From Vicinamibacterales bacterium (GTDB taxonomy: Bacteria > Acidobacteriota > Vicinamibacteria > Vicinamibacterales > 2-12-FULL-66-21), in contig DATJFE010000067.1 of the NCBI GenBank assembly GCA_035495955.1, positions 19,972-83,971 of the forward strand: a DNA stretch of 64,000 nt. Direction: 5' to 3'. Below are positions 4,178 to 57,904 of the stretch, piece by piece. The notes beneath the pieces were generated by a model, which had not been told where the DNA came from, searched no databases, and worked only from the letters and a program-made list of their open reading frames with translations. How positions within the stretch are numbered: the first letter of the stretch is position 1; each line of letters begins with the position of its first letter. Both the position numbers and the translations under genes were made by a program.

Positions 4178-4193
4178 CGTCCGCCCGAGAGGA

Positions 4194-4276: not shown

Positions 4277-4330
4277 TCACTGGAAGAGGACGGCCGAGGT
4301 CAACTCCCAGACTATCGAACCCGCGTTTTG

Positions 4331-4359: not shown

Positions 4360-4755
4360 CTACGCCGGCTGAAAGCCGGGCGGCAGATCCGGCGACCGTT
4401 CGGGGCGCTTGGCCGCCTTGGGCAGCGCGTCGCGCACGACCTGTTCGAGCTCTTCGAGATAGGCCACGAAACGGCCGCGTCCCTCGCTCGTCAGGCGATA
4501 GAGCGTCTGTGGACGGCCGCCGTCGGTGCCGCGCCACGCTTCGACCAGGCCCGCTTCGAGCAGGACGTCGATATGCCGGCTCAAATTCCCGTCGGTCAGC
4601 GCGCAGAGCCGCTTCAGCTCGTTGAATACCGCGCCTTCCGGGCGCGTGACGAGCGAGGTCATGATCCCGAGCCGCGCCTTCTCGTGGAGGACCCGATCGA
4701 GTCCCTCGTACGCGTATCGGCCGGGTTCTTCGCGATGAGGCTGTTTCTTGGGCAT
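4360..4755 (-). CDS. winged-helix transcriptional regulator (ArsR/MarR-like wHTH)
   Basis: C-terminal 131 aa of ORF 4360..5016: MPKKQPHREEPGRYAYEGLDRVLHEKARLGIMTSLVTRPEGAVFNELKRLCALTDGNLSRHIDVLLEAGLVEAWRGTDGGRPQTLYRLTSEGRGRFVAYLEELE. ATG at 4755. It lies 2 nt downstream of the preceding membrane-protein gene. Confidence 0.8.
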   Translation of the reverse strand: MPKKQPHREEPGRYAYEGLDRVLHEKARLGIMTSLVTRPEGAVFNELKRLCALTDGNLSRHIDVLLEAGLVEAWRGTDGGRPQTLYRLTSEGRGRFVAYLEELEQVVRDALPKAAKRPERSPDLPPGFQPA

Positions 4756-11367: not shown

Positions 11368-11380
11368 CGGCCGGTGGGGC

Positions 11381-11415
11381 ATGAGCCATGAGCCCTGAGC
11401 CATGAGCCATAGAGC
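11381..11415. repeat. heptamer tandem repeat atgagcc x5 containing the start codon of the next gene
   Basis: atgagcc atgagcc ctgagcc atgagcc atagagc. The ATG of the fourth unit (11402) is the lipoprotein start. ATG 11381 is in frame but hits TGA at 11396. Confidence 0.85.
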
Positions 11416-13780: not shown

Positions 13781-13850
13781 CGGAGGTCGGGTGACGGAGG
13801 TCGGGTGACGGGGGTCGGGTGAGGGGGGTCGCGTGCCGGGGGTTCGAGGT
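13781..13850. repeat. 14-nt tandem repeat cggaggtcgggtga x~5, G-rich on the + strand, starting 2 nt after the stop
   Basis: cggaggtcgggtga cggaggtcgggtga cgggggtcgggtga ggggggtcgcgtgc cgggggttcgaggt. It contains a canonical G4 motif at 13803-13828 (GGG-4-GGGGG-2-GGG-3-GGGGGG). Confidence 0.85.
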
Positions 13851-15111: not shown

Positions 15112-15222
15112 TCCGCAGCTCCCAACTCTCAGCTCCCCCATCCCCACTCCCAATCCGCGAGATCCGACATCCCACATCCGACCCCCGCCCCCGACCCCCG
15201 CCCCCCGACCCCCGACTCCCGA
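15112..15222. repeat. composite C-rich (on +) short-repeat tract between two minus-strand genes
   Basis: cagctcccaactctcagctcccccatccccactcccaatcc...gacccccgcccccgacccccgccccccgacccccgactcccgac. The right part (15182-15220) is a multi-tract G4 motif on the minus strand, directly after the HAD stop (15223-15225). Confidence 0.8.
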
Positions 15223-15879
15223 CTACAGGCGGCGGACGAACTCGGCCGTGATGGCATCCAGCGAGTCGACCACCACGTCGGCTTCGGTCAGCTTCTCGCG
15301 GGAATACGTGTGGGTCACCGCGATAGTCCGCATGCCCGCGCCGCGCGCCGACTGCAGCCCCCAGTGCGAGTCCTCGATCGCCGCGCAGCGCGCCGGATCG
15401 ACGCCGTGCAGTTCCGCGGCTCTGAGGTAGGGGTCCGGCGCCGGCTTGGTGCGTTCCGTATCGCCGGACGCGACGATGAAGCGGAACGCGCCGTCGAGGC
15501 CCGCGCCGCGCAGCATCAGCTCGATGTCGCGCCGCAGAGCGCCCGAGGCGATCCCGATCGGCCAGTGCGCCGACAGCCGGCGCACGCATGCGGCCGCGCC
15601 GCCATACAGGACGTCGGTGCCCGCGACGAGCGCCTCGAACCGGCGGCCCTTCTCGGCGATCAGCATCTCGATCTCCTCGTCGCCGAGCAGCAGTCCGTAA
15701 TCCGACGCCACCTGCCTGAACACGCCCTCGTCGTCGAATCCGAGATAGCGCGCGCAGTATTGCTCCTTCGTCAGCGAGACTCCGGCGGGCGCGAACAGTT
15801 CCTGATAAGTCCGCAGGTGGAGCGGCTCGGAGTCGGCCAGGACGCCGTCGAAATCGAAGACGATGGCTTTGATTGGCAT
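15223..15879 (-). CDS. HAD family hydrolase (beta-phosphoglucomutase/phosphatase-like)
   Basis: MPIKAIVFDFDGVLADSEPLHLRTYQELF... is the classic HAD motif I. ...IASGALRRDIE... then ...IEDSHWGLQSARGAGMRTIAV. ATG 15879 preferred; GTG 15915 is an alternative. Confidence 0.85.
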   Translation of the reverse strand: MPIKAIVFDFDGVLADSEPLHLRTYQELFAPAGVSLTKEQYCARYLGFDDEGVFRQVASDYGLLLGDEEIEMLIAEKGRRFEALVAGTDVLYGGAAACVRRLSAHWPIGIASGALRRDIELMLRGAGLDGAFRFIVASGDTERTKPAPDPYLRAAELHGVDPARCAAIEDSHWGLQSARGAGMRTIAVTHTYSREKLTEADVVVDSLDAITAEFVRRL

Positions 15880-25894: not shown

Positions 25895-28018
25895 TCAATT
25901 CCGCAGCGGCTTCCCGGTCTTCAGCGTGTACGCGATCCGCTCGAGCGTCTTGCGCTCGCCGCACAGGCTGAGAAACGCCTCGCGTTCCAGATCCAGCAAC
26001 TGCTGTTCGCTGAGCGTCGCCGGGTGCGCGAGGCTGCCGCCGGCGAGAATCCACGCGAGCTTGCGGCCGATGAGTGCGTCGTGATCGCTGATGCGGCCGG
26101 CGCGCCATGCGAGATGGACGCCGAGCTTGAGCGCCGCGAACACGCCTTCTCCGCCGACGCGGATCGCGTCGCGCGGCCGCCTCGCCGGGCGGTGGCCCGG
26201 CGCGAGCTGGAGCGCCAGAGCCTTCGCGTCCGCGAGGAGACGGTCGCGGTTCATGGTCACCTCGTCGGCGTCGCGCAGATAGCCGATGCGGCGCGCATCG
26301 GGCGCGCTCGTTCCGACCTTCGCGAATCCGATCGTCTCGAAGACGCGCTGCACGTAGGGAAGCGGATCCCCCGGTCCAGGCGCGTCCTCCATAGCGCGCG
26401 CCAGCATTTCCTTCGTCCCGCCACCCGCGGGAATCAGGCCGACGCCGACCTCGACGAGCCCGATATAGGCCTCGGCGGCGGCCTGCACGCGGCTCGCGTG
26501 CAGCACGATCTCGCAGCCGCCGCCGAGCGTCAGCCCGGCAGGCGCGACGACGACGGGGACGTCCGCGTGCTTCAGCGCCATCGTGGCGGCCTGAAATGCG
26601 CGGACCATGAGATCCACTTCGTCCCAGTTGCCTTCCTGGGCTTCCAGCAGCAGGAGCATCAGGTTGGCCCCGGCGGAAAAATTCGGCGCGTCGTTGGCGA
26701 CGACCAGCGCGGCGAAATTGCGCGACGCTTCCGCAACGCCCGCGCGGAGCATCTCGATCGTGTCGCCGCCGATGGCGTTCATCTTCGAATGGAAGACCAC
26801 CTGCAGCACGCCGTCGCCGATATCGACAAGCGATGCGCCGGGGTTCTTGCGGACGACGCGTGACGCCTTGGGAGTCGGAGGTTGGGAGTTGGGAGTTGTC
26901 AAGACCGCCCGCGTTTCGAGCGGCCCCAGTTCCCAGCCAAAGCCCCAACGCATCGCCTTGTCGATGTCGGCGGGGGAGTACGCGATCTCGTCCGCGATCT
27001 TCTCCGTGTAGTCGAGCGTCGGTCCGAGCGTGGCCCGAAGAAACGCGCCGACCTTGTCCTTCCCTTCGTACAGCGTCCGGATACGCGCGCCGGTGGACTC
27101 GATTGAGCGCGCGGCCTCCAGCGACGGCAGCTTCGGGGTGTGCTTCGCGCGGTACTCGAGCGTGTGCGGATCGAGCACCAGGATCGCGTCGCCATTCTTC
27201 TCGTAGAACCCGCGGCCGGCTTTCGCCCCGATCATCCCCCGCGCGAGCATTCCGGCGACGAACTCAGGCAGCTCGAATGACAGCGTGCGCGCGACGTGCG
27301 CGAGAACGTCGACGCCCGCGATATCGACGGTCCTGAACGTGGCGCTCTTCGGCCGGCCGATCACGGGTCCCGTGATCGCGTCGACCTCCTCGATCGTGTA
27401 CTCGCCGGACTCGACGGCCCGCAGCACCTGCACGAGACCGAAGATGCCGATCCGATTGGCGATGAAGCCGGGAACGTCTTTCGCGAGCACGACGCCCTTG
27501 CCGAGCCGCCGATCCGCGAACTCCCCGATCGCCTCCACCACGCGTGGATCGGTCTCGGCCGTCGGGATCAGCTCCAGCAGGTGGAGATACCGGGGCGGAT
27601 TGAAGAAGTGCGTGCCGAGCCAATGACGGCGGAAACCGTCCGTTCGTCCCACGGCGATCGACGCGATCGGAATTCCTGACGTATTGGAGCTGACGACGGC
27701 GTCGGCGCGGCGGACGCCATCGACGCGCGCCATCAGCGCCTGCTTCGCGTCGAGCTTCTCGACGATCGCCTCGACGATCCAGTCTGCGTCGCCGATCGAC
27801 GGCAGGTCCTCGTCGAAGCCGCCGGTCGCGATCAACGACGCGGCGTCCGCGGTGAAGAAGGGCTCGGGCTTGAGCCGCTTCGCGCGCTCCAGCCCTTCGC
27901 GCGCGGCGTCGCGCGTCACGTCGAGCAGCCGGACGCGCAGGCCCGCATTCGCCGCGTGCGCCGCAATCTGCGCCCCCATCACGCCGGCTCCCAGCACGGC
28001 CGCGGACCGGACTCTCAT
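25895..28018 (-). CDS. fadN: bifunctional 3-hydroxyacyl-CoA dehydrogenase / enoyl-CoA hydratase (FadN-type domain order)
   Basis: MRVRSAAVLGAGVMGAQIAAHAANAG (NAD fold) ... then crotonase part ...VVFHSKMNAIGGDTIEML...ALVVANDAPNFSAGANL... 707 aa from ATG 28018, which overlaps the tetR stop (ATGA). Confidence 0.9.
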   Translation of the reverse strand: MRVRSAAVLGAGVMGAQIAAHAANAGLRVRLLDVTRDAAREGLERAKRLKPEPFFTADAASLIATGGFDEDLPSIGDADWIVEAIVEKLDAKQALMARVDGVRRADAVVSSNTSGIPIASIAVGRTDGFRRHWLGTHFFNPPRYLHLLELIPTAETDPRVVEAIGEFADRRLGKGVVLAKDVPGFIANRIGIFGLVQVLRAVESGEYTIEEVDAITGPVIGRPKSATFRTVDIAGVDVLAHVARTLSFELPEFVAGMLARGMIGAKAGRGFYEKNGDAILVLDPHTLEYRAKHTPKLPSLEAARSIESTGARIRTLYEGKDKVGAFLRATLGPTLDYTEKIADEIAYSPADIDKAMRWGFGWELGPLETRAVLTTPNSQPPTPKASRVVRKNPGASLVDIGDGVLQVVFHSKMNAIGGDTIEMLRAGVAEASRNFAALVVANDAPNFSAGANLMLLLLEAQEGNWDEVDLMVRAFQAATMALKHADVPVVVAPAGLTLGGGCEIVLHASRVQAAAEAYIGLVEVGVGLIPAGGGTKEMLARAMEDAPGPGDPLPYVQRVFETIGFAKVGTSAPDARRIGYLRDADEVTMNRDRLLADAKALALQLAPGHRPARRPRDAIRVGGEGVFAALKLGVHLAWRAGRISDHDALIGRKLAWILAGGSLAHPATLSEQQLLDLEREAFLSLCGERKTLERIAYTLKTGKPLRN
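26868..26898. repeat. gggagtt-type heptamer repeat inside fadN, encoding the interdomain linker
   Basis: ttgggagtcggaggttgggagttgggagttg on +. Read on the minus strand it encodes LTTPNSQPPTPKAS, between the dehydrogenase and hydratase parts. Confidence 0.75.
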
Positions 28019-28643: not shown

Positions 28644-28671
28644 AAGGCGCGCCTGTCAAGCGGACACGGCG

Positions 28672-29484: not shown

Positions 29485-30401
29485 GACGCGCTGCCCGCCA
29501 GGAGCTTGAGATACACGGCCTCCAGGGCGGGCTCCTCGTCGAATACCTCGCGGATCTCGCCGCCCGCTGTCACGAGCGCCCGAATCACCGCGGGCGCCCC
29601 CGTGTCGGGCGCATCGACAATCATCGACAGGCCGTCGGCCTCGACGCGCACGTCGCGCGCTCCGGCGCGCAGGGCGGCCTCGATGAGGCCGCCGGCCGCC
29701 GGCTTTCCACTCAATCTGACGCGCAGCCGGCAACCGAACATTTCGCGCCTCAGGGCGGACGGCTCGCCGATCGCGATCAGCCTGCGGCTGACGAGCCCCA
29801 CCCGGTCAGCCATGCGCTCGGCTTCGTCGAGATTGTGTGTCGAGACGACGATGGCGCGGCCCAGGCTGCGAAGGTGCTGAAGCAGATCGCGCACCGTGCG
29901 CGACGTCTGCGGATCCAGGTTGGCGGTGGGCTCGTCGAGCAGCACCACTTCGGGATCGTGGACGAGCGCCCGCGCCAGCGCGAGCTTCTGCTTCATGCCC
30001 TTTGAGAGGAGGACGACGCGGTCGGCTCGGCGGTCCAGGAGTTCGAACAGGCGCAGGACGCGCTCAACGGCCGCGGCCGGCTGTGCGAGCCCGAACAGCC
30101 GCGCATAGACGATCAGGTTGTCCTCGACCGTAAGGTGGTCCCAGAGTCCGGGCGTTTCGGTGAGGAACCCGATGCGGGCGCGCAGCGCGGATCCGGTTGC
30201 GCGAGTAAACGGCCGCCCGTTGACCACCACCCGGCCGGATGACGGTGGGATCAATCCCCCGAGCATCCTCAGCGTCGTCGTCTTTCCGGCTCCGTTCGGC
30301 CCGAGCAGCCCAAAGACCTCACCGCGTTTGACCTCGAAAGAAAGGTCCTCGACGGCGATCCGCTCGCCAAACCGCCGCGTCACCGATTCAACGATCAGCA
30401 T
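29481..30401 (-). CDS. ABC transporter ATP-binding protein
   Basis: Walker A GLLGPNGAGKTTTLRML, signature LSKGMKQKLALARAL, Walker B VVLLDEPTANLD. Confidence 0.92.
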   Translation of the reverse strand: MLIVESVTRRFGERIAVEDLSFEVKRGEVFGLLGPNGAGKTTTLRMLGGLIPPSSGRVVVNGRPFTRATGSALRARIGFLTETPGLWDHLTVEDNLIVYARLFGLAQPAAAVERVLRLFELLDRRADRVVLLSKGMKQKLALARALVHDPEVVLLDEPTANLDPQTSRTVRDLLQHLRSLGRAIVVSTHNLDEAERMADRVGLVSRRLIAIGEPSALRREMFGCRLRVRLSGKPAAGGLIEAALRAGARDVRVEADGLSMIVDAPDTGAPAVIRALVTAGGEIREVFDEEPALEAVYLKLLAGSAS

Positions 30402-30412
30402 GTGAGCTCAGT

Positions 30413-30445
30413 CCCGATATCCGACACCCGACACCCGACACCCGG
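30413..30445. repeat. heptamer repeat ccgacac x3 in the divergent promoter region
   Basis: cccgatat ccgacac ccgacac ccgacac ccgg. It is G-rich on the minus strand, which is the sense strand of the ABC operon 5' leader. Confidence 0.8.
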
Positions 30446-30457
30446 CGCCCCATGTCC

Positions 30458-30783: not shown

Positions 30784-30994
30784 CGCGTCCCTTCATCCAG
30801 CCGATTGAATCTCCGGATTCGTCCGTTCGGATCCGGACAACTGACTCATCCGTAGTATCCCGTCTAAGTCATTGAAATATCATGGCAAGTTCCCCTTGCT
30901 TTTTTCGCGCGTGCGTTTGCATAGTGAAGTGTCCGGGTCCGTACACCGTCCGGTCGTGCTATTCGATTCGGTCTTCTTTCTGTGGAGGATGGAG

Positions 30995-33886
30995 ATGGGA
31001 GTTCGATTGGCAAGAACGGTGGTGTTGTCCGCGGCCGTCGGGATACTGACGGCGTTTGCAGCACCATCAGCAGCGCAGGTTGCCTCGGGGCGTATCGACG
31101 CCACCGTGAGCGACACAACCGGCGCCGTGCTTCCAGGAGTCACGGTCGACATCAGCGGTCCTCAAAGCCGGACCGCCGTCACCGACACGCTCGGCGAGGT
31201 TCACTTCCTGAATCTCTCGCCCGGCACCTACAGCGTCAGCGCGAAGTTGACGGGCTTCAGCGACTATCTGAACAAGAACCTCCCGGTGGCGACCGGCACG
31301 AGCGTCCCGCTCAAGATCTCGATGTCGATCGCCGGCGTCTCGACACAGGTGCAGGTCACGAAAGAAGCGCCCGTGATCGACACCAAGAAGATGACGACGT
31401 CGACCAACGTCAGCGTCGAGGAGCTCCAGAACATTCCGTCTGCGCGCGACCCGTGGGTCGTGATGCAGACGATCCCCGGCATCGTCCTCGATCGCGTGAA
31501 CGTGGGCGGCGGCGAGTCGGGGCAGCAGCCCGGCTACCAGGCGAAGGGAGCGAACGGCGGCGACAACACGTGGAACATGGACGGCATCGCGATCACCGAC
31601 ATGGCCGCCACCGGTTCCAGCTCGACGTACTACGACTTCGACATGTTCCAGGAGATGCAGGTCACGACGGGCGGCGCCGACGTATCGAACCCGACGCCGG
31701 GCATCCAGTTGAACATGGTGCTGAAGAGCGGCAGCAACACGCCGCACGGCTCGACGCGGTTCTATTTCGAGAACGAGAGCCTCGAATCGAACAACATGCC
31801 GTCGGATCTCGCCGCGACGATCGGCGGCACGAGCGGCAAGGGCAACCGGATCCATCAGTACAAGGACTACGGATTCGAGCTCGGCGGGCCGATTCTCAAG
31901 GACCGCCTCTGGGGTTGGGGCGCAGCCGGCAAGACCGACATCCAGCTCCTGACGCTCACGGGGTATCCGGATCACACAATCCTTCAGGACACCTCGTTCA
32001 AGGGCACCGGACAACTGTCGACGTCAACGCGCGCGAACTTCACGTTCTTCCGCGGCAACAAGCAGAAGTTCGGCCGTAGCGCGAGCTCGACCCGGCCGCC
32101 GGAGACGACTTACGATCAGAGCGGCCCGACCGACATGTACAAGGGCGAGGTGAACTTCGTGCTCGGGAACAACATCTTCCTCGTCGCGAAGGGCGCCCAC
32201 ATCCACGGCGGATTCCAACTGGCGCCTGAAGGCGGCATCAACGCGCAGGAGTGGATTGACGATGCCGGCGTCCAGCACGGGACTGCGGACCTCTATAAAT
32301 CGAACCGCCCGCAGGACTCGATTGGCCTGGACGGGAGCGTGTTCCGCGGGCACCACGAGCTGAAATTCGGCTACGGCTGGCGCCGGGCGCCGGTGCAGTC
32401 GTCCGACGTCTATCCGGGCAATGGCGTCATCACGGCGCACAACGGATATCCCGAGATGATTGCGTATATCCGGCGCAATTGGGCCAGCTCGGAAACCGGC
32501 GTCTATAACAGCGCCTATGCCTCCGATACCTGGACGTTGAATCGACTGACCGCCAATCTCGGCCTTCGCTGGGATCGCCAGGTCAGCTCGCTCGAGGCGG
32601 CGTCGGTTCCCGGCAGCACGGTCCTGCCGAGTCTCCTGCCCGCGATCTCGACCACGGCCGTGAAGAACGCCGTCGTGTGGAATACGGTGGTGCCGCGGCT
32701 CGGGGTCACCTACGCGATTGACGAGAATCGCAAGACGATCCTTCGCGGCAGCTACGCGATGTTCGCGTCTCAGCTGGGCGACGCCGTGGCGAGCCAGATC
32801 TCGACGATTCAATACACCGGGATCTACTACTACGCGATCGATCTCAACGGAAACAAGCTCGCGGATCCGAACGAGATACTGTTCAATCTGGGACCGATCA
32901 ATTACTACGGCTTCGATCCGAGCAATCCGACCAGCGCGACGACCAACAACAAGATCGGCAAGTATACGACGCCGCGCACGCAGGAGGTTCTGCTTGGCAT
33001 CGATCACGAGCTGATGGCCAACTTCGGCGTCAGCGCGACGTTCACGTATCGCTATTACAACCACTTCGACTGGTATCCGCTCATCGGCGTCACGCGCGCG
33101 GACTACAGCCAGGCGGGTGTGTGTACGTCGAGTGCTGCCCCCTGCGCGCCGGCGAACGGGGACACGGGTCCCGTCGGTTCGTTCAGCACGCCGTATTTCG
33201 GGATAAATCCTGCGAAGATCCCTCCCGGCCAGGGCACCAGCTATGAGGCGCGGAATGGTTACCACCAGCGCTTCCTCGGAGCCGAGCTGAGCGCCACCAA
33301 GCGCATGTCCGATCGCTGGATGGCCAGGTTCGGTTTCTCGACAAACGATCACCGCGAGTACTTCGATAATTCGAACACGTCGCAGCTCGATCCGACATCG
33401 ACGCGCGACAACCCGAACATCAACGGCGGGCACGTCATCACCCGATCGGGCGGGAGCGGCAAGAGCAACATCTTCCTCGTGCTGCCGCAGTATCAGTTCA
33501 CGGCCAACGGGATGTACCAGGCTCGCTGGGGCATCAACCTCGGCGCGAACTGGGTCTTGCGGCAGGGATATGCTGAGCCCTTCTATCGAAGCCGCGTGAA
33601 TCCCGGGGACGGACTGGGGTTTAGAAATGTACTGGCCGTCACAGACGTCACCAAATTCCGGCTGCCGGCCGTCAGCTCGCTCGACGTACGTGTGGAGAAA
33701 GCATTCCAGATTCGTCGTGCAAAAGCTGCCGTCGACCTGGACATCTTCAACATCGGCAACGCCGCGACCGTGCTCGGCCGCCAGTACGACTTGCGTCTGA
33801 GCACCAGCAGTCCCACGGGGTTCAACCATGTCCTGGAGATCATGGATCCGAGGGTCGCTCGCATAGGAGTCCGGTTCAACTTCTAG
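30995..33886 (+). CDS. TonB-dependent receptor-like outer-membrane protein with carboxypeptidase-regulatory-like N-domain
   Basis: MGVRLARTVVLSAAVGILTAFAAPSAAQ signal. GVTVDISGPQSRTAVTDTLGEVHFLNLSPGTYSVSAKLTGF. Plug-like QVQVTKEAPVIDTKKMTTSTNVSVEELQNIP. C-terminal ...RIGVRFNF. ggagg lies 6 nt before ATG 30995; ATG 30989 is an alternative. Confidence 0.85.
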   Translation: MGVRLARTVVLSAAVGILTAFAAPSAAQVASGRIDATVSDTTGAVLPGVTVDISGPQSRTAVTDTLGEVHFLNLSPGTYSVSAKLTGFSDYLNKNLPVATGTSVPLKISMSIAGVSTQVQVTKEAPVIDTKKMTTSTNVSVEELQNIPSARDPWVVMQTIPGIVLDRVNVGGGESGQQPGYQAKGANGGDNTWNMDGIAITDMAATGSSSTYYDFDMFQEMQVTTGGADVSNPTPGIQLNMVLKSGSNTPHGSTRFYFENESLESNNMPSDLAATIGGTSGKGNRIHQYKDYGFELGGPILKDRLWGWGAAGKTDIQLLTLTGYPDHTILQDTSFKGTGQLSTSTRANFTFFRGNKQKFGRSASSTRPPETTYDQSGPTDMYKGEVNFVLGNNIFLVAKGAHIHGGFQLAPEGGINAQEWIDDAGVQHGTADLYKSNRPQDSIGLDGSVFRGHHELKFGYGWRRAPVQSSDVYPGNGVITAHNGYPEMIAYIRRNWASSETGVYNSAYASDTWTLNRLTANLGLRWDRQVSSLEAASVPGSTVLPSLLPAISTTAVKNAVVWNTVVPRLGVTYAIDENRKTILRGSYAMFASQLGDAVASQISTIQYTGIYYYAIDLNGNKLADPNEILFNLGPINYYGFDPSNPTSATTNNKIGKYTTPRTQEVLLGIDHELMANFGVSATFTYRYYNHFDWYPLIGVTRADYSQAGVCTSSAAPCAPANGDTGPVGSFSTPYFGINPAKIPPGQGTSYEARNGYHQRFLGAELSATKRMSDRWMARFGFSTNDHREYFDNSNTSQLDPTSTRDNPNINGGHVITRSGGSGKSNIFLVLPQYQFTANGMYQARWGINLGANWVLRQGYAEPFYRSRVNPGDGLGFRNVLAVTDVTKFRLPAVSSLDVRVEKAFQIRRAKAAVDLDIFNIGNAATVLGRQYDLRLSTSSPTGFNHVLEIMDPRVARIGVRFNF

Positions 33887-34012
33887 CCGCGGACTACGGC
33901 CGCGGACTACGGCCGCGGAATACGGCCGCGGAATACGCGGAATACGCGGACTACGGCCGCGGAACATGCGGACTACGGCCGCGGAATACGCGGAATACGC
34001 GGAGTACGGAAC
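33887..34012. repeat. tandem array of ~12 units cggaMtacg with optional gccg insert (period 9/13), starting at the base after the stop codon
   Basis: ccgcggactacgg ccgcggactacgg ccgcggaatacgg ccgcggaatacg cggaatacg cggactacgg ccgcggaacatg cggactacgg ccgcggaatacg cggaatacg cggagtacgg. Confidence 0.9.
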
Positions 34013-34031
34013 GTAAACGCGGTACACTAAA

Positions 34032-34068
34032 CCCCCGGAGCGGCTGCGGCGGCTCCGGGGTTTTTTTT
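34032..34068 (+). terminator. strong intrinsic terminator
   Basis: ccccggagc (34033-34041) pairs with gctccgggg (34052-34060), a 9-bp GC stem followed by eight T (34061-34068). Confidence 0.9.
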
Positions 34069-34120
34069 GCGAACCTGTTTCGCCGAAGCGAAGCGGAGGC
34101 GTGCCAGCGCCATTTTCCAA

Positions 34121-34231
34121 GGCGCGAGGTGCGCGAGGTGCGTGGGGTGCGCGAGGTGCGTGGCGTGCGTGACGTGCGCACTCCCCGCACCCCTCGCACG
34201 CCTCGCACTTCGCGCACATCCTCGCACCTCA
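34121..34231. repeat. 9-nt tandem repeat (gcgcgaggt x6) followed by its inverted counterpart (cctcgcac-type x5): a ~110-nt imperfect hairpin ending 9 nt before the next start codon
   Basis: gcgcgaggt gcgcgaggt gcgtggggt gcgcgaggt gcgtggcgt gcgtgacgt gcgcact | ccccgcac ccctcgcac gcctcgcac ttcgcgcac atcctcgcac ctc. Confidence 0.85.
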
Positions 34232-34239
34232 AGGTCTCA

Positions 34240-36072
34240 ATGTCCCGGATGCAGAAGTCGGGCGCGGCGCTCGCGCTCGCGGTACTGATCGCGGCCTGCG
34301 GTGGCGGCGGCGGAAACAGCGGCAGCAACTCGGGCTCCAATCCTGGCGGCGGCACGACGCCCGCGGCCAATCCGTGCACCGCGGCCGGCGCGGCGGACGT
34401 GCAGGCCGTCGGAAGCGTCGCGGCCGGCGCCGGCGTGCCGGACAAGAAAACGCTCATCGACGGCAACCCGCGCGGCCGGCTCGCCGAGGCGCTCTGGATC
34501 CACCAGGAGGCGCAGCAGCGGCGCGCGGCACGCCCCGCGGGAGCGGGCGCCCAGCCGTCCCTCACCACGCCGTCTCCCGTCGCGGACGACGTCGGAGAGA
34601 TCGCCGTTCTCCAGGATCAGGGCGACCTCATACTGGCGGCGAATCCGTACGATCTCCGCAGTACGGGCATACGTTTCACCCGCAACGGCTCGAGCTACAC
34701 GCTGTCGAAGATCGACGGAACCTTCCGGACGTCGCTCGGCAACCAGGTCACGCTGGGCGACGACGACAGCACCGGCGTCGCGATTCCATTCTCATTTCCG
34801 TTCTACGGAATCGCGCAGACCTCCGCGTTCGTCAATTCCGATGGCAACATCACGTTCGGCGAGGAAGACAAGGAGAGCACCGAGCGCAACGTCTCGCGCC
34901 TGCTCGCCGGCGCCCCACGCGTCGCGCCGTTCCTCGCGGATCTCGATCCCACGTCCGGCGGAAAGATCTTCGTCAATGCCGCGGCGGATCAGTACACCGT
35001 GACGTGGTGCAGCGTACGCGGATTCGATTCGACGCGCACGACGACGGCTCAGGCGACGCTGCTGCCCGACGGAAGCGTCGAGATGAAGTACGGCGACACC
35101 ATCACGCTGACCGACGCGGTGGTCGGGATCTCGCCGGGCCACACGGGCACCTTCACGACCGCCGATTTGAGCGTCGCCGCTGCCGTTTCCTCGAGCGGCG
35201 CCATCGGCGAGCGCTTCGCGCAATCCGGCACGCTCGATACGCAGGCGGTCGCGAAGAAGTTCTACGCGTCGCATCCGGACAACTACGACCAGATCCTGCT
35301 GTGGAGCGATCAGCCGCTCATACACGACGCGTTCGCGTACGAGGTCACGGTGGCGAACGAGATCCGCGGCATCGGACAGGACATCTTCGACCTGTCGACG
35401 GCTTTCGGCAGCGCCGGACGGCTTCGCTCGCTGGTCGTGATGGACTATCTCGGAAAATACCCTGACGATCCGACGGCGAAATTCCTGGGCGAGAACAACA
35501 CGCTCAGCGTCATGGGCCAGGAGGTCGGCCACCGGTGGCTGGCGTACCTCGAGTTCCGGGATCGGACCGGCGCGCGCTCCGACGTGCTGCTCGGACGCGA
35601 TCTGGCGCACTGGAGCTTCTTCTTCAATTCCGACGCGTCGGTGATGGAAGGCAACCAGATCGAGGATCAAGGCGGCGGCCAGTTTAGGACGGTCGATGCG
35701 GTCAAGCGCTACAACCGCCTCGATCAGTACGCGATGGGGCTCGTGCCGCCGAGCGCCGTGCCGCCGTTCTTCTACGTCGAGAGCCCGACCACCACGCATT
35801 CGCGGGAGGACGCGCCGCAGATCGGCGTCTCGTTCACGGGCACGCGCCGCGACGTGCTCGTAGACGACGTGATCGCGATCGAGGGAGCGCGCGCGCCCGC
35901 GTCCGCCGATTCATCGAAGACCCATCGTCAGGCCTTCATCTACATCGTCGGCGCCGGACGCGGCACGGATTCGGGCCAGGTGGCCAAGCTCGATCGCGTT
36001 CGCTCGGCGTGGGAGCCGTTTTTCGCGCAGGCGACAGAAGGCCGCATGACGGCCGTCACGCGACTTCATTAG
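34240..36072 (+). CDS. lipoprotein with NIDO-like N-terminal region and metzincin/leishmanolysin-like C-terminal region carrying QEVGH in place of HExxH
   Basis: MSRMQKSGAALALAVLIAACGGGGG lipobox. ...VAIPFSFPFYGIAQTSAFVNSDGNITFGEEDKES...RVAPFLADLDPTSGGKIFV... then ...LSVMGQEVGHRWLAYLEF...LAHWSFFFNSDASVMEGNQ. The codons gtc atg ggc cag gag gtc ggc cac were checked directly. The upstream 37 codons of ORF 34129 are repeat-derived (RTPRTPRT). Confidence 0.6.
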   Translation: MSRMQKSGAALALAVLIAACGGGGGNSGSNSGSNPGGGTTPAANPCTAAGAADVQAVGSVAAGAGVPDKKTLIDGNPRGRLAEALWIHQEAQQRRAARPAGAGAQPSLTTPSPVADDVGEIAVLQDQGDLILAANPYDLRSTGIRFTRNGSSYTLSKIDGTFRTSLGNQVTLGDDDSTGVAIPFSFPFYGIAQTSAFVNSDGNITFGEEDKESTERNVSRLLAGAPRVAPFLADLDPTSGGKIFVNAAADQYTVTWCSVRGFDSTRTTTAQATLLPDGSVEMKYGDTITLTDAVVGISPGHTGTFTTADLSVAAAVSSSGAIGERFAQSGTLDTQAVAKKFYASHPDNYDQILLWSDQPLIHDAFAYEVTVANEIRGIGQDIFDLSTAFGSAGRLRSLVVMDYLGKYPDDPTAKFLGENNTLSVMGQEVGHRWLAYLEFRDRTGARSDVLLGRDLAHWSFFFNSDASVMEGNQIEDQGGGQFRTVDAVKRYNRLDQYAMGLVPPSAVPPFFYVESPTTTHSREDAPQIGVSFTGTRRDVLVDDVIAIEGARAPASADSSKTHRQAFIYIVGAGRGTDSGQVAKLDRVRSAWEPFFAQATEGRMTAVTRLH

Positions 36073-36177
36073 CGGGTGACGGGGGACAGGGGAGGGGTGT
36101 CGGAGGACGACCTCCCCGACGCCCGACCACCCCCAACGCCCGACCTCCGACCCCCGACGCCCGACGCCGACGCCCGT
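36073..36177. repeat. G-rich arm / C-rich arm low-complexity tract filling the whole spacer between two convergent stops
   Basis: gggtgacgggggacaggggaggggtgtcggagg acga cctccccgacgcccgaccacccccaacgcccgacctccgacccccgacgcccgacgccgacgcccg. Canonical G4 motif on + at 36074-36097. Multiple GGG tracts on the minus strand at 36110-36176. Confidence 0.85.
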
Positions 36178-38250
36178 CTATTTCCAGGACAGCGCGGCGA
36201 GCGCTTCCTTCGCCTGTCGCTCGTAGGGGCCGCCGAGTTCCACGTATCTCTCGAAATTCGCGATCGCGCGGCGGCGATCCTCATCGCCGCCGATCCATTT
36301 CTGCGTGAACTGGTCGTAGCGCTGCGATTTGGCGAGGCGCATCTGGTGGGCGCGCGCCAGGTTGAAGTATCCGAGCGCGTCCGCAGGGCCTACCGTCGTC
36401 GCGCGCTCGAAGGATTCGATGGCCGCGTCCAGCGCGCCGCGCCGGACCTGAATCACGCCGATCGCGTCCGACACTTCCGGATCCTGAGGCCAGCGCTGCT
36501 CGGCGTCGCGCAGCGTCTTGATGGCCGTCCCCTCGTCGTGCTGCTGGCCGTACGCGTCCGCGAGCGAAAAGTACACGGGCTCGAACTCCGGGACCGCCCG
36601 GCGAACGCGCTCCCATGCCTCGGCGGCGTCGTGATAGCGCTGGAGAGCGTACCGCGACAGCCCCAGCGCGTAGTGGACCCACGGCCGCGCGTCGGGCGCG
36701 GCCGCCGCGGTTGCCAGCGTGCGCGCCGCCGACTCCACGTCGCCGCGTTGATACGCGCCCCAGCCCGCCACGGCCGCGGGCGAGTCGGTGGCGGAGGGCC
36801 CGGTGGGCGCTAAACGCGCCAACGAGGCGGACGCGGACGCCGGAGAGGGCGCCACCGTGGGTGTTACGCCGCCCACTGGTTCCGTGGGATGCGGTGCTTC
36901 GGGTGCTGCAGGTGCCGGCGGAGCTGGCGCGACGGGTACTGGCGCGACGGATCGTGGTGGAGCATCCGTAGCAGCCGTCGCCCCTTTAGGCCCAGCAGGT
37001 CCCATGGTATCCGTCGTGATTCGCGCTGGCGGCAGCGCTACGTATCCGCGCCGCGCGCGCACTTTGACGCCGGGTCTGGCCACATTGACCGCGATCGTCC
37101 GGTACTTCCCGTCGAAGGCCGCTTTGGCCGGACTGTAGGCAATCAGGTAGTACGTGCCGGCGTCCTGCTGGATTTCGTCGAGCGCCCGCCCGAAATTGTT
37201 TTCGTTGCGAATCGCGAATCCGCCGGTGTCGACGGCGAGGCTGTTGGGGGCGTCCGTCTGCAGGTCGAAGTGCGGCCCGCCGCCGCTTATCGTGCTCTCC
37301 GCGGCCAACTGGTCAATCATGGTCGCCTGGGCGCCCTTGTTGAGCCCGCGCGCGTCGAGTGCGTAAAAGCGCGCTCCCGCGCGGGCGGCCAGGCCGACGG
37401 CCTGACGGACCTGCGATTCGAGCTTCTCGGCCACGAAGCCTTCCGACAGGAAAACGACCGTCTTTTGTCCCGGCAATCGCGCCAGTCCGTTGGCCAGCGC
37501 CCCGACGGTCGTCAGCGTGCTCATCGTATCTCGCTGAATATCGCCGATCAGGCGGTTTGCCTTCTCGCGGACTTCAACGTCAGGGCTCCCCCGTTTGCAG
37601 TAGTCCGGGTCGTCCACGCACGCGCGCGTGACGACGATCTCCATCGTTTCGCGGTCGTTGTCCGCGAGTCGGAATAACTCGCCCTCGTCCTGAATCCGAG
37701 GCCAGTCGCGCGTCAACTCGATCTGCCTGCTGCGCGTGTCGCCCGGCATCTTGACAGCCTGCGCCGCGGCGCGAAGCTCCTCGCGATCCGTGGTCAGACG
37801 GTTGTTGGCCATCTTCCCGTCGACGACGACCCCGCCGATGTCGCCCTGCCGCCAGCGCTCGGCGACGAACTTCACGACGGCTTCGCGCGTCCGCTGGAGG
37901 CCGCCGGCCGAGAGGTGGTTGGAATCGAAGAGGAACAGCCAGACTGCCGGTGCCGCGGAGGCTGCAGGTGCGAGCGGTGCTGCGGGGTGCGCGGCCAAGG
38001 GTGTTTCCGGAGCTGACGGATGCGCGGAAGCCGCCTGCGCGCCGACGAGGACCACGGACTGGATCTTCTGCGGCGCTCCATCTTCGGTCAGCACGAAGTC
38101 GTCCGGCCCGAGATCCATCACGAAGCGGCCGTCCTTGAACACGCGCACGTCGACTTCGACGACATCCGTTCCGGAGCGGAACGTTTGCGGCGGCTGCGGC
38201 GGCGAGGGGGCCTGCGACGCGAGCAGCGCCGCGAACACCAGCGGGATCAC
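36178..38250 (-). CDS. VWFA-related acidobacterial-type (TIGR03436-like) domain protein with C-terminal TPR repeats
   Basis: GTG 38250 overlaps the upstream stop (GTGA). VIPLVFAALLASQ signal. ...TFRSGTDVVEVDVRVFKDGRFVMDLGPDDFVLTEDGAPQKIQSVVLV..., ...WLFLFDSNHLS..., C-terminal TPR ...YALGLSRYALQRYHDAAEAWERV... Confidence 0.8.
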   Translation of the reverse strand: MIPLVFAALLASQAPSPPQPPQTFRSGTDVVEVDVRVFKDGRFVMDLGPDDFVLTEDGAPQKIQSVVLVGAQAASAHPSAPETPLAAHPAAPLAPAASAAPAVWLFLFDSNHLSAGGLQRTREAVVKFVAERWRQGDIGGVVVDGKMANNRLTTDREELRAAAQAVKMPGDTRSRQIELTRDWPRIQDEGELFRLADNDRETMEIVVTRACVDDPDYCKRGSPDVEVREKANRLIGDIQRDTMSTLTTVGALANGLARLPGQKTVVFLSEGFVAEKLESQVRQAVGLAARAGARFYALDARGLNKGAQATMIDQLAAESTISGGGPHFDLQTDAPNSLAVDTGGFAIRNENNFGRALDEIQQDAGTYYLIAYSPAKAAFDGKYRTIAVNVARPGVKVRARRGYVALPPARITTDTMGPAGPKGATAATDAPPRSVAPVPVAPAPPAPAAPEAPHPTEPVGGVTPTVAPSPASASASLARLAPTGPSATDSPAAVAGWGAYQRGDVESAARTLATAAAAPDARPWVHYALGLSRYALQRYHDAAEAWERVRRAVPEFEPVYFSLADAYGQQHDEGTAIKTLRDAEQRWPQDPEVSDAIGVIQVRRGALDAAIESFERATTVGPADALGYFNLARAHQMRLAKSQRYDQFTQKWIGGDEDRRRAIANFERYVELGGPYERQAKEALAALSWK

Positions 38251-41522: not shown

Positions 41523-43690
41523 CGAATTTTAACCTGCCGCGCTTTCTCGGGTTCTCCGAACATCGTCCACAGTTGAGCCGCCAGCGCGCGTCCTTCGGGC
41601 GTCGGCGAGGCCCGCAGCAAATCGTCGATCGCCCGCTCGGAATCGGCGTCGCGCCCCATCGCGCGATACAGCATGGCGAGGCCGGCGCGGGCCCGGGTGT
41701 TGTGCGGAAAGAGGCGAATCTCTTCCTGGAAGCAGGGCTCGGCCTCCGGGTAGCGCTCGAGGTGAGCGAGGGAATCGCCGAGGTAATAGTTGAGCTCGTT
41801 GATCTGGATGGTGCGTCCGCGAAGCGCGTCGCGGGCCCGCATGAACGGCCCGAGCGCCTCGGCGTACCTGCCCTGGTTGTAGGCGATCAGCCCCTCGACG
41901 AACAGCGGCATCGGCAGCGTCGGATCCGCCTGCTGGGCGAGGCGGGCTTCGCGCAACGCGGCGTCGGGGTCGTGCCGCGCCAGCGCGATCTTGGCGAGCA
42001 GCTCGTGCGCCGCCGCGGGCGCGACGCTCACGGCGAGCTCCGCATGCTTCTGCGCTTCGTCGAGGCGGCCCAGTCGGAGCAGTCCGCCGCCCGCGCCGAG
42101 CAGGCTGCCCGCGTCCTTCGGATTGCGCTTGATCACTTCCCGGTACGCGCGCACGCCGTCTTCAGTGAGTCCCTGGCGCAGGCAGACTTCCGCGAGCTGG
42201 AGCCACGCGTCCGTCATTTCGGGATCGGCGGCGAGCAACTCGCGATAAAGAACCATCGCATCCGCGAACTTCAGCGCGCCCGCCAGGTCCGACGCGCGAC
42301 GATACTTTTCGAGGACCTGAATTTTGTCCTTCGGATCCGGCAGCGAATCGCCCGGCAGCGACAGCGACGCGCTGCTGCCGGTGCCGACGTAGCCCAGCGC
42401 CGCGAGGCGCTGGCGATCCTGCTCGTCGACGGCCGCCGGCGCCGCGATCGACGTCTTCGCAATCATCGATTCGAGCGCGCCGCGCATCGCCTGGCGGACC
42501 TGGGGCCGATCGGCGCCGATCGACTGCGATTCGGATCGATCGCGCTCCAGGTCGTACAGCTCGTCGCGCGGAGCGCGGATGAAGTGATACCGCGAATCGA
42601 CGAGCCCGTAAAGCTCGCTCCATCCGAAGTGGTACCGCGAATAGAGCGCTTCGGAATAGATGGGCGCATCCTGCAGGGCGCCGGTACCTTCGAGCAGTGG
42701 TCGCAGCGACCGGCCCCGGAGCTCCGTCCGCGCGGGCGCGCCGGCCAGATCGAGGATCGTCGGCGCCAGATCGATGTGCTGCACCGGCGCCGCCACGCGG
42801 CGTCCTCGATGGCGTCCGGGCAGCTTGACGATCAGCGGGACGCGGGTGGTTTCCTGATACAGAAACAAGCCGTGCTCCTGCTCGCCGTGATCGCCGAGAC
42901 CTTCGCCGTGATCCGCGAGCAATACGATCGTCGCGCGATCGTAGAGACCCGCGGATCGCAGGCGATCGAGGAAACGGCCGACCAGCTCGTCGCTGTAGGC
43001 GATCTCGCCGTCGTAGGGGCTGTAGGCGGCGAAGCGGGCCGGCGGCGCGTACGGCTTGTGCGGCTCGTAGAAGTGCAGGAACAGGAAGAACGGCTTCGCG
43101 CGATCGCGCGCGTCGATCCAGGAGATCGCCGCCGCCAGCGTCTTGTCGCCGCCGCGCTGAACCTGGCCGATCGATCGCTCGCCGGACGAAGCCGGCATGT
43201 CGCTGTCGTACGTATCGAATCCCTGATTGATCCCGGTTGCCGCGCGCAGCACGTACGCGGAGACGAACCCGCCGGTCGGCCACCCGCGCTCCTGCAGCGC
43301 GCGCTGGATGAACCATTGGCCCTTCTTGACCGTGAAGCCGACGTTGTCACGGACCCCGTGCTCGAAGGGGAGCTGGCCCGAAAGGAGACTGGTGTGGGCC
43401 GGAAGCGTCTGCGGCGCGTGCGACCAGGCGTGCTCGAACACGACGCCTTCGGCCGCCAGGGTATCGATGTTCGGTGTCCGGACTTTCGTATATCCGTACG
43501 CCGGAAGATGATCGGCGCGGAGCGTATCGATCGAGATCAGGACGATCGGTCCCGGCGCCGGCGGCCGCGTTGCCCGCCAGAGCGCCCAGGCCACGCCCAG
43601 AACGATGACCAGCGTGATGGCGATCCATGCAGCGCGCCTCGCCCCTCGCGCCTCGCGTCTCGGACCTCGCGGCTCGCGCCTCGCGCTCAT
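41519..43690 (-). CDS. sulfatase-like (alkaline phosphatase superfamily) hydrolase/transferase with N-terminal membrane anchor and C-terminal TPR domain
   Basis: ...IVLISIDTLRADHLPAYGY...NIDTLAAEGVVFEHAWSHAPQTLPAHTSLLSG... (Thr where Cys-type sulfatases have Cys), ...LLADHGEGLGDHGE..., then about 300 aa of TPR. ATG 43690 overlaps the upstream stop (ATGA). Confidence 0.85.
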   Translation of the reverse strand: MSARREPRGPRREARGARRAAWIAITLVIVLGVAWALWRATRPPAPGPIVLISIDTLRADHLPAYGYTKVRTPNIDTLAAEGVVFEHAWSHAPQTLPAHTSLLSGQLPFEHGVRDNVGFTVKKGQWFIQRALQERGWPTGGFVSAYVLRAATGINQGFDTYDSDMPASSGERSIGQVQRGGDKTLAAAISWIDARDRAKPFFLFLHFYEPHKPYAPPARFAAYSPYDGEIAYSDELVGRFLDRLRSAGLYDRATIVLLADHGEGLGDHGEQEHGLFLYQETTRVPLIVKLPGRHRGRRVAAPVQHIDLAPTILDLAGAPARTELRGRSLRPLLEGTGALQDAPIYSEALYSRYHFGWSELYGLVDSRYHFIRAPRDELYDLERDRSESQSIGADRPQVRQAMRGALESMIAKTSIAAPAAVDEQDRQRLAALGYVGTGSSASLSLPGDSLPDPKDKIQVLEKYRRASDLAGALKFADAMVLYRELLAADPEMTDAWLQLAEVCLRQGLTEDGVRAYREVIKRNPKDAGSLLGAGGGLLRLGRLDEAQKHAELAVSVAPAAAHELLAKIALARHDPDAALREARLAQQADPTLPMPLFVEGLIAYNQGRYAEALGPFMRARDALRGRTIQINELNYYLGDSLAHLERYPEAEPCFQEEIRLFPHNTRARAGLAMLYRAMGRDADSERAIDDLLRASPTPEGRALAAQLWTMFGEPEKARQVKIR
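43632..43687. repeat. cctcgcg-type short tandem repeat forming the first ~19 codons of the sulfatase-like gene
   Basis: gcgcgcctcgcccctcgcgcctcgcgtctcggacctcgcggctcgcgcctcgcgctc. On the minus strand it encodes MSARREPRGPRREARGARRA. Confidence 0.75.
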
Positions 43691-48548: not shown

Positions 48549-48597
48549 TCGGTCATCGGTCATCGGTCATCGGTCATCGGTCATCGGTTGTCGGCCA
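48549..48597. repeat. heptamer tandem repeat tcggtca x5 perfect + 2 variant, between convergent stops
   Basis: Counted unit by unit: 48549, 48556, 48563, 48570, 48577 (perfect), 48584 tcggttg, 48591 tcggcca. It starts 3 nt after TAG 48544-48546. Confidence 0.95.
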
Positions 48598-48605
48598 TCG
48601 TCCCG

Positions 48606-53709: not shown

Positions 53710-53784
53710 GCCGCTATCGTCTAGGGGTCAGGACACGTGGTTCTCAGCCACGGGACCGGGGTTCGAATCCCCGTAGCGGTACCA
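53710..53784 (+). tRNA. tRNA-Glu (anticodon CUC), CCA encoded
   Basis: Folded by hand. Acceptor gccgcta/tagcggt (G1-U71 wobble at the top), D stem gtct/ggac, anticodon stem cgtgg/ccacg, loop ttCTCag, 4-nt variable loop, T arm cgggg-ttcgaat-ccccg, discriminator A, CCA. Confidence 0.92.
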
Positions 53785-55507: not shown

Positions 55508-56046
55508 CAGCCGAATCGTGCGACCGATCACGTTCGAGTCGGCCCCGAACGCTCTGCGCCACAACCCATCACTGATTACAGCCTCCTGGGATTGAAAGGA
55601 ATCGCTCTCCGTGAACACACGGCCGAGCGACGCCTGTACGCCGACGAGCGTGAAGAAGTTCGGCGTCGCGAACGCGCCACGCAATCGGTCTGCGCGGTCC
55701 GTGGCAATCAGATCGAATTCAGGTGAAAGTTCATGTTTCCAGATGACAACGGTGGCGAGGCTCTCGAAGGACCGGCTGTACGCGCGCCAGTCCAGGAACG
55801 CGCCAGCGCTTTGGGGACCGTCGGATGGATCGTAGGTGCTACTGGCGCCGCCGCCGGTGTTCGCCTTCCACACAACCACGACACGATCCGGATCTCGGAA
55901 TGTTAGCGGCCGAAGGAGCACGCTCCGACGAGCGCAAGGACGGCGCCGTTCAGCCCGATACCGAGGCCAAGAGTGAGGACCGTCGCCGTCGCGAAGCTAC
56001 GATTGCGGACGAGCAGTCGGCCGGCGAACCGCAGATCCTTGCTCAT
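55508..56046 (-). pseudogene. N-terminal fragment of an ADOP/MacB-like permease gene, with a 1-nt frameshift and 3' truncation
   Basis: MSKDLRFAGRLLVRNRSFATATVLTLGLGIGLNGAVLALVGA (frame of ORF 55903..56244) continues as VLLRPLTFRDPDRVVVVWKAN...FLDWRAYSRSFESLA...NFFTLVGVQASLGRVF...AVISDGLWRRAFGADSNVIGRTIRL in the frame of ORF 55295..55921. Family resemblance stops near 55508. Confidence 0.7.
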
Positions 56047-56146
56047 TGCCGTGGGATTCCTCGGAATCGTGATCCTGGTCGCCGCGTATGTCCCGGCACG
56101 TCGCGCCCTCATGATCGAACCTCTCGCCGCGCTCCGCGACGAATAG
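56045..56146 (+). pseudogene. isolated 3'-terminal fragment (33 codons) of an FtsX/ADOP permease gene
   Basis: IAVGFLGIVILVAAYVPARRALMIEPLAALRDE* is the typical C-terminus of this family. The upstream in-frame sequence is not permease-like. The fragment begins exactly at the start codon of the opposing pseudogene. Confidence 0.55.
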
Positions 56147-56568
56147 ATAGGAATCGCCGAGCTGTCCGACTGACGTTGGGGAGAACGTTTGGCGAGAAGG
56201 GATGCTGTCACCGAATCGGGACCACGATGAGGTGCTTCCCGCAAATGATAGGTCGCCGGAAGTCGGCAAGGGTAGAGGAATCAACGGGTCAGGGCCGGTA
56301 AACCCGTCGGCGTTGTTCTCGACCTATCTGGAAAGGAATCGCGTTGGCCAGGCGTGCTACTTGGCGCCTCCGCCGATGTAGATGCACGCGTCAGCGACTT
56401 TGGCCGAGGTGAGCGTACTACCCTTCAATCTGCGCTGGGCCAATGCGTGCAAGGAGCGTGGTCGCCCGAGCTCCCGCTCCCACAACGCCAAAGACAGGCG
56501 CCGGCGGCCCGCCCTGCGCCTTCAGCAGAGTCGTAGTCGCGCCACCGTGCCGAGGAATTCGCGTCTGT

Positions 56569-57861: not shown

Positions 57862-57904
57862 CACGCGCGATCCTTCACGTCCTCGCCCCACTCATCGTGC
57901 AATT

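Follow-up and report, generated by a model that had tools for sequence, protein, structure and literature searches.

Repeat arrays and a repeat-built hairpin in the spacer between a TonB-dependent receptor gene and a lipoprotein gene of a Vicinamibacterales bacterium

The spacer between a TonB-dependent receptor gene and the lipoprotein gene that follows it, in the DNA of a Vicinamibacterales bacterium (phylum Acidobacteriota), raises the question of whether a large hairpin built from short tandem repeats and placed directly before a start codon is a regulatory device or a recent product of repeat expansion. The spacer runs from 33887 to 34239 (353 nt) of the 64,000-nt stretch of DNA that was analysed, here called the window. 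In the initial annotation it had three parts, an array, a terminator and a repeat-built hairpin, and all of them were found where they had been placed, far beyond what chance would give. We conclude that both arrays, the one behind the receptor stop codon and the one that forms the hairpin, are probably young, hypermutable intergenic simple-sequence repeats (SSRs) of a known kind in a new taxon, and not a conserved regulatory device. Judged by the alignment of related spacers, the conserved functional skeleton of the spacer is a TACACT box, an intrinsic terminator, a GGCGTGCCAGCGCC box, a weak Shine-Dalgarno (SD) sequence and the ATG.

The two arrays and their absence from close relatives

The repeat features of the spacer are as follows.

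33887..34008, + strand: tandem array of 11 CGCGGAMTACG-type units in 9-nt and 13-nt (+GGCC) variants (Tandem Repeats Finder (TRF), motif count, repeat families D1/D2)
34019..34029, + strand: CGCGGTACACT, last degenerate unit of the array, which holds the TA(C/A)ACT box (34023-34028) and is conserved in orthologous spacers
34118..34122, + strand: CAAGG, left member of the 5-bp direct repeat on either side of the hairpin (sequence)
34122..34175, + strand: left, G-rich arm of the hairpin, six 9-mers GCGCGAGGT / GCGTGGGGT / GCGTGGCGT / GCGTGACGT (TRF, unit list)
34176..34230, + strand: right, C-rich arm of the hairpin, six inverted units GCGCACTCC ... TCGCACCTC (xCGCACxxC; TRF, inverted repeats I1-I4)
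34230..34234, + strand: CAAGG, right copy, which includes the AAGG of 34231-34234 (sequence)

The first array starts at the first base past the receptor stop codon (TAG, 33884-33886), as had been annotated. TRF gives it a span of 33886-34008 with periods of 9, 13 and 22 (9/13-nt x8), and the motif CGCGGAMTACG, allowing at most one mismatch, occurs 11 times within 33888-34008; the window as a whole holds 21 such matches, against 7.0 +/- 2.5 in shuffles. A degenerate unit at 33958 and the closing CGCGGTACACT bring the total to about 12, and counted in this way the array has the 12 units first ascribed to it.

The hairpin is formed by two opposed arrays of 9-mers, GCGCGAGGT x6.4 at 34122-34179 and an inverted CGCACNYC-type array x5.6 at 34177-34227 according to TRF, which meet at the palindrome GTGCGCAC and are 82% complementary over 44 nt. 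Folded as RNA they give a structure of about 110 nt at -84.3 kcal/mol (z -8.4), which none of 200 shuffles equalled, and as DNA one of -51.8 kcal/mol (z -7.7). The paired region extends from 34135 or 34117 to 34230 or 34234, depending on the folding context, and ends 6-10 nt ahead of the lipoprotein ATG; in the isolated fold the GG of the right CAAGG pairs with the CC at 34117-34118. Folding and sequence bear out the description of a hairpin of about 110 nt just before the ATG at 34240, with a weak AAGG at its foot. The six left units and their capacity to pair also stand, and the five or so inverted units first counted become six (TRF x5.6).

The pairing does not depend on how the units are arranged. 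When the units of the right arm were permuted, 257 of the 720 orders paired at least as well as the native one, whose minimum free energy of -81.6 compares with a permutation mean of -81.7. The structure is therefore a generic outcome of two opposed arrays and not a matter of unit-by-unit complementarity. A mirror-order test for a recent palindromic duplication was not significant.

The spacer was compared with those of about 15 lineages in which the receptor-lipoprotein pair is syntenic, within about 410 kb of related loci (55 loci, designated by an L and a number). The lipoprotein relatives are almost all metagenome-assembled genome or metagenome sequences labelled Vicinamibacterales or Acidobacteria gp6. 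The closest sampled relative, a JGI contig (L053/L055), has a lipoprotein with 92% amino-acid identity and 12 kb of collinear DNA that is about 91% identical in nucleotides. The terminator and the small hairpin of 34075-34096 recur in its spacer of 147 nt, together with a GGCG box that is almost the same (GGCGGCCAGCGCC), but the 11-unit array and the 112-nt hairpin do not; only 19 nt lie between box and ATG. The hairpin and the first array are likewise absent from L014 (82% protein identity) and L054 (75%), and the large hairpin is missing from every other one of the approximately 15 orthologous spacers. No further copy of the hairpin or of its arms was found in the window or in the related loci. 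By parsimony, both arrays would have arisen in the lineage of the window after its split from L053.

Where the window has the 11 units of the first array, L053 has only CGCGGTAAAA-CGCGGTACACT. A more distant locus, L017, carries a 3-4-unit CGCGGAAYA array at the equivalent place, which suggests that the sequence next to the conserved CGCGGTACACT box has expanded more than once. The first array would be a growth from that sequence, of which L053 holds two copies and the window about 12.

Rapid turnover with conserved flanks extends beyond this one spacer. The BLAST alignment of the window with L055 is continuous save for five short stretches (26862-26913, 28664-28667, 30393-30457, 33885-34240 and 36072-36178), four of which are repeat-bearing intergenic spacers, the other, 26862-26913, being an array in the coding linker of a FadB-like open reading frame (ORF). 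Wherever both sequences carry arrays, these are unlike in unit and in copy number: the window has CCCGACA x4.6 against CCTCGAM x ~14 in L055, and GGGGGAC/CCCGACG-type units in the window against GGSGACT x7 / CCAAAGC x5. Upstream of the receptor gene, the spacer without arrays (30784-30991) falls inside a high-scoring segment pair that aligns at 90.9% overall.

Such arrays are frequent in this clade. The window contains 16 TRF arrays with a period of 5-15 and at least three copies, compared with 0-1 in 20 dinucleotide shuffles, and across the 410 kb of related loci the period is 7 in 28 of 52 arrays, most of the period-7 arrays lying between crude ORF calls. On these crude calls, over all loci, there are 22 array-to-stop pairings in which the array follows a called stop by no more than 25 nt, in about half of them by no more than 2 nt, and the stop-following arrays are G-rich on the sense strand in 13 cases and C-rich in four. 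Pairs of an array with an inverted array recur independently (L014 3528-3659; L033 589-678 and 5168-5302), and in L020 such a pair, built of a different unit (AACTCCC/TTGGGAG), lies in the orthologous spacer before the terminator (1722-1794). At least three head-to-tail copies, many arrays beyond chance and rapid turnover between conserved flanks are the marks of long-unit SSRs, and all three are present here.

A weaker array pair in the window lies in the convergent spacer downstream of the lipoprotein gene:

36076..36176, no strand assigned: G-rich followed by C-rich heptamers (CCCGACG x8.6), inverted repeat I6, 71% complementary

The units of this spacer differ in L053/L055. As a candidate for a second strong hairpin the spacer (36073-36177) was set aside, its fold being no better than those of shuffles.

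Other repeats in and around the window were recorded as well. Spacer-filling arrays, mostly G-rich on the sense strand, lie 0-2 nt from stops at 13781-13843, 15134-15223, 43633-43686 and 48549-48600. At 11380-11415 a CATGAGC x5 array, beginning 12 nt past a stop, contains the ATG (11402) of the next lipoprotein gene, so that gain or loss of a unit would move or reframe candidate starts. A perfect 30-bp inverted repeat with a 27-nt loop at 4192-4278, after a gene ending at 4177, folds as RNA at -70.5 kcal/mol (z -10.8); it is the sole long palindrome of the window with 100% complementarity, and AACTCCC/GAGTTGG-type heptamers follow at 4300-4360. At 28664, L055 has an additional 125 nt of ~30-nt repeats.

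The conserved skeleton of the spacer and its flanking genes

The other elements of the spacer, and the genes on either side, are as follows.

34033..34068, + strand: intrinsic terminator, stem 34033-34041 / 34052-34060, T8 at 34061-34068 (fold and covariation)
34075..34096, + strand: small 9-bp hairpin CTGTTTCGC-CGAA-GCGAAGCGG, specific to a sub-lineage (folds)
34098..34112, + strand: locus-specific conserved box GGCGTGCCAGCGCCA with the outer palindrome GGCG-N6-CGCC (exact match in relatives)
30992..33886, + strand: TonB-dependent receptor gene (CarboxypepD_reg + Plug + beta-barrel; Pfam matches)
34240..36072, + strand: lipoprotein gene, 610 aa, lipobox LIAAC (translation)

The terminator has a 9-bp GC stem with two inner pairs and an RNA folding energy of -26.5 kcal/mol (z -3.7). 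Its fold is kept in 15 orthologues, where 9 of 14 pairs show compensatory changes, and it is therefore a real, selected structure. The description of a textbook terminator with a 9-bp GC stem and T8 is borne out, and the element is a genuine Rho-independent terminator. A promoter and terminator consensus scan of 33500-34600 found nothing; it missed this real terminator through an internal mismatch and its loop rule.

The TA(C/A)ACT box, which reads TGnTACACT in many relatives, precedes the terminator stem by 1-4 nt in 13 of the 15 aligned orthologous spacers and may be a -10 element. The GGCGTGCCAGCGCCA box is found exactly, once per locus, in 11 related loci, where it stands 15-25 nt ahead of the lipoprotein ATG save where an insertion intervenes. 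The small hairpin between terminator and box is common to L053 (92% over 25 nt) and absent from L014 and L054. In about 15 lineages the skeleton has the same order, namely TA(C/A)ACT box, terminator hairpin, T-run, GGCGTGCCAGCGCC box, 15-25 nt with a weak AGG/GGA, and ATG; the rest of the orthologous spacers is lineage-specific and made up of short arrays, MITE-like palindromes (MITE, miniature inverted-repeat transposable element) and nested hairpins. The skeleton was seen in the spacers of L001, L003, L013, L014, L017, L018, L020, L023, L024, L026, L036, L053 and L054, among which L026 lacks the hairpin and keeps the two boxes (TACACT, 15 nt, box).

This arrangement of TACACT box, terminator and GGCG-N6-CGCC could represent a promoter overlapping a terminator, together with an operator or a 5' stem-loop. 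A sigma-54 reading of the GGCGTGCCAGCGCC box, tried by eye on either strand, was dropped, the GG-GC spacing being off by one and the flanks not conserved. We regard the TACACT box, the terminator and the GGCGTGCCAGCGCC box as the part of the spacer likelier to hold real regulation of the receptor-lipoprotein pair.

Searches of Rfam 15 with 33500-34600 (e-value mode) and with the whole window (gathering mode) assigned no family to the spacer at or above the gathering score; the sub-threshold matches were generic miRNA-precursor hairpins (39 bits against a gathering score of 168, and similar). The only Rfam/ARAGORN match in the window is a tRNA-Glu(CTC) at 53710-53784. Downstream of it, the GC content of 56000-59000 is about 0.60 compared with 0.66 overall, and this low-GC DNA could be an integrated element.

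The C-terminal ...RFNF* of the receptor is kept in orthologues. The lipoprotein orthologues (92-45% identity) have a common start codon, and the ATG at 34240, which opens a lipoprotein signal peptide (MSRMQKSGAALALAVLIAAC-GGG), is the same start as theirs (MSR...). The weak SD-like AAGG at 34231-34234 is separated from it by 5 nt. Since the conserved start and lipobox begin at 34240, the 9-nt arrays were rejected as coding sequence (an in-frame GTG ORF from 34129).

The hairpin in the leader and the explanations for it

The 9 nt between hairpin and ATG hold no -10-like hexamer; the hairpin therefore belongs to the 5' leader if the gene is expressed, and we infer that it is transcribed with the lipoprotein mRNA. 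Fold predictions put the cost of opening the region -12..+15 at 12.8 kcal/mol in the native sequence, compared with 5.8 kcal/mol when the hairpin is deleted, and that of opening SD..ATG at 6.0 compared with 2.7 kcal/mol. Because the ribosome site is predicted to be more costly to open with the hairpin, damping of translation is plausible.

The initial annotation had gone further and seen the geometry of a transcriptional or translational attenuator whose strength would change with the number of repeats. The position close to the ATG and the raised opening cost agree with that geometry. The hairpin is followed by CAAGGTCTCA and by no U-tract, and is therefore not a transcriptional attenuator of the intrinsic-terminator type. 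Nor does the predicted opening cost scale with the units: over a simulated series of unit deletions it ranged from 5.7 to 12.8 kcal/mol, non-monotonically and with no trend. Comparison of unit counts between relatives, which had been proposed at the same time, shows that the number does differ, from present to absent, the hairpin being missing from all other orthologous spacers. The RNA folds equally well from either strand (-84.3 and -83.8 kcal/mol), so that nothing points to selection acting on the transcript strand. We find no support for a dedicated attenuator.

If the arrays are young SSRs, as we think probable, repeat expansion by replication slippage and homogenisation would be at work in most free spacers of this Vicinamibacterales genome, acting on units of 7-9(13) nt, and slippage would be the origin of the arrays. 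The hairpin would consist of two opposed arrays built from a single 9-mer family, which entered or grew in the interval from the conserved box to the SD once the lineage had separated from the closest sampled relative. Through its position in the leader it probably has an incidental effect, which may be a moderate damping of translation initiation, a target for double-strand RNases, or both; such an effect would be tolerated and not selected.

Several observations weigh against this explanation. A second metagenome contig (JGI) that encodes the identical protein has the same 353-nt spacer length, and the arrays are therefore not wildly unstable in the short term. The occupation of the same spacers in different lineages, together with the G-rich bias, could reflect selection for a generic role. 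The predicted opening cost rises by 3-7 kcal/mol with the hairpin, which is not negligible for a neutral passenger. Finally, the flanking CAAGG duplication would fit a transposition-like insertion better than slippage in situ.

The foremost alternative is that the hairpin is a tunable dial in the 5' untranslated region (5'-UTR), acting through SD occlusion or an RNase III cut, with unit changes that reset lipoprotein expression in the manner of phase variation. We consider this unlikely. RNase III could plausibly cleave a stem that exceeds 40 bp. The hairpin ends within 6-10 nt of the ATG with no promoter-like hexamers downstream of it, it more than doubles the predicted cost of opening the ribosome-binding site (12.8 vs 5.8 kcal/mol), and there is a precedent in hmw1A, where an SSR-built 5'-UTR hairpin cut by RNase III sets expression (PMC12721329). 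Certain simulated unit deletions do move the opening cost by 3-6 kcal/mol, but the simulated copy-number series is non-monotonic. Unit number does vary among relatives, from present to absent, yet the hairpin is conserved in no relative examined, and the sole other contig with the same protein has a spacer of equal length. A dial acting through the RNA also sits poorly with the lack of any strand asymmetry or G-U enrichment suggestive of RNA-level selection, with a pairing to which unit order is immaterial, and with the presence of like arrays where a 5'-UTR role is impossible, for example at convergent gene ends.

A broader proposal, which we think improbable, is that position-conserved, sequence-fluid arrays at gene ends form an evolvable post-transcriptional layer, in which the hairpin would be an RNase III-sensitive dial for a surface lipoprotein. 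On this proposal the arrays would, read on the sense strand, be rich in G where they follow stops and rich in C where they precede starts, and so would often form inverted pairs. If it were true, the spacer would be a free-living soil counterpart of hmw1A phase variation, with arrays on both arms.

There is also little likelihood that the 112-nt hairpin is a MITE-like or REP-like mobile element (REP, repetitive extragenic palindromic) that inserted between box and SD and duplicated a CAAGG target. CAAGG is present on both flanks (34118-34122 and 34230-34234), although a 5-bp match could arise by chance or slippage, and the right copy is homologous to TAGG/CAGG + TCT in L014 and L054. Precise removal (34123-34234, in silico) yields GCGCCATTTTCCAAGGTCTCAATG, close to the empty site of L054, GCGCCCTTTCCCGGCAGGTCTCATG. 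The place is an insertion hot spot in relatives: L019 and L020 carry MITE-like elements there, and L018 has one a short way into the coding region. No second copy of the hairpin exists in the window or the related loci, and its arms are tandem 9-mer arrays, not unique terminal inverted repeats.

The MITE-like element of the relatives is about 100 nt long (ATCCGGGGGCTTCGCCCCCGGA ... GCTCGTTCGCGC..GATACACT) and was seen in L001 (260-380), L014 (1492-1610), L018 (~2820-2900), L019, L020 (1860-1985) and L036; in L018 it lies within the 5' coding region of the lipoprotein gene and apparently shifts the start codon. A second palindromic family (GAAACCGGGRCAC...ACAGTTTTTC...GTCCCGGTTC) occurs in L054 (2880-2950) and L055 (2630-2695), one copy lying in the loop of the conserved terminator and the other within a FadB-like ORF, there at the position of the TTGGGAG array of the window (26868-26898).

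Least probable of all is a generic role at the level of DNA for which arrays would be kept in spacers: they might, for example, extrude cruciforms or slipped strands, bind a nucleoid protein or one specific to the repeats, or insulate neighbouring transcription units. Although the hairpin is equally stable on both strands and strong as DNA, and arrays persist at orthologous spacers while their sequence turns over, with an orientation bias relative to stop codons and positional rules similar to those of Xanthomonas heptamers (PMC4692102), the units differ from spacer to spacer and offer no common one for a protein to recognise, and the closest relative has neither of the two arrays studied here.

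Young SSRs remain our preferred explanation. If it holds, caution is called for in reading start-codon-adjacent repeat hairpins in this group as conserved riboregulators, as they come and go fast.

Comparison with known repeat systems

The spacer shares features with several known systems. Its repeat units are contiguous, without intervening spacers, and do not constitute a CRISPR array. The large hairpin has neither a U-tract nor a hairpin-specific antiterminator pairing, and belongs neither to Rho-independent terminators nor to leader attenuators.

REPs and bacterial interspersed mosaic elements (BIMEs) of enterobacteria are intergenic inverted repeats that form stable hairpins between co-transcribed genes or after stops and affect mRNA stability or upstream translation. 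The palindromic unit of REPs is conserved, about 35 nt long and repeated hundreds of times, and a RAYT transposase mobilises it. The hairpin studied here resembles them as a stable structure made from intergenic inverted repeats, and differs in that no dispersed unit is conserved and neither the window nor the related loci contain a further copy.

In the hmw1A leader of H. influenzae, ten heptamer repeats, (ATCTTTC)n, make up one arm of a hairpin that RNase III cleaves (PMC12721329). Expression there is inverse to unit number, and population-level switching, transcription and RNase III cleavage were shown experimentally (PMC12721329). As in hmw1A, the repeats of the window lie upstream of a surface-protein gene, are predicted to be transcribed in its leader and form a long, stable hairpin (-84.3 kcal/mol, z -8.4). 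In contrast to hmw1A, arrays make up both arms, the closest relatives lack the element, and its effect is predicted to be non-monotonic with unit number.

The closest counterparts are the long-unit (5-11 nt, mostly heptameric) intergenic SSRs, represented by GGGAATC in Xanthomonas, GGGGA(C/T)T and the short tandemly repeated repetitive (STRR) heptamers in Nostoc/Calothrix, and TAACTGA in Beggiatoaceae all of them free-living bacteria (PMC4692102, PMC4679880, and Mrazek 2007 cited therein). The Xanthomonas and Nostoc heptamers are intergenic; those on the sense strand lie within 50 bp of a stop, those on the antisense strand upstream of an ORF (PMC4692102). Their length differs between Xcc and Xac, and some are 'tandemly inverted' (PMC4692102). 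The arrays described here share this character: they are head-to-tail units of 7-9 nt in many arrays, mostly intergenic, at or near stop codons or just upstream of starts, with occasional inverted array pairs, and their length and sequence vary between close genomes in which the flanking genes are syntenic.

They differ from these counterparts in their phylum, Acidobacteriota (Vicinamibacterales), and in having no dominant unit, each spacer carrying its own. The 9-nt and 13-nt units of the two arrays in this spacer have no G3 runs, which makes the G-quadruplex proposed for Xanthomonas inapplicable to both arrays. The units GCGCGAGGT and CGCGGAATA contain GG runs only, short of the G-quadruplex-forming G3+ runs that mark the Xanthomonas/Nostoc class and that some neighbouring heptamers (GGGGGAC) would provide. 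A literature search for such repeats in Acidobacteriota or Vicinamibacterales found no description in the library searched; its matches were eukaryotic or generic tandem-repeat papers, which leaves the search uninformative. If the arrays are indeed SSRs of this kind, Vicinamibacterales, which are abundant in soil, share the poorly understood heptamer-type repeat habit of Xanthomonas and cyanobacteria, including the abutment on stops and the inverted pairing, and offer a wider taxonomic base for asking why it exists.

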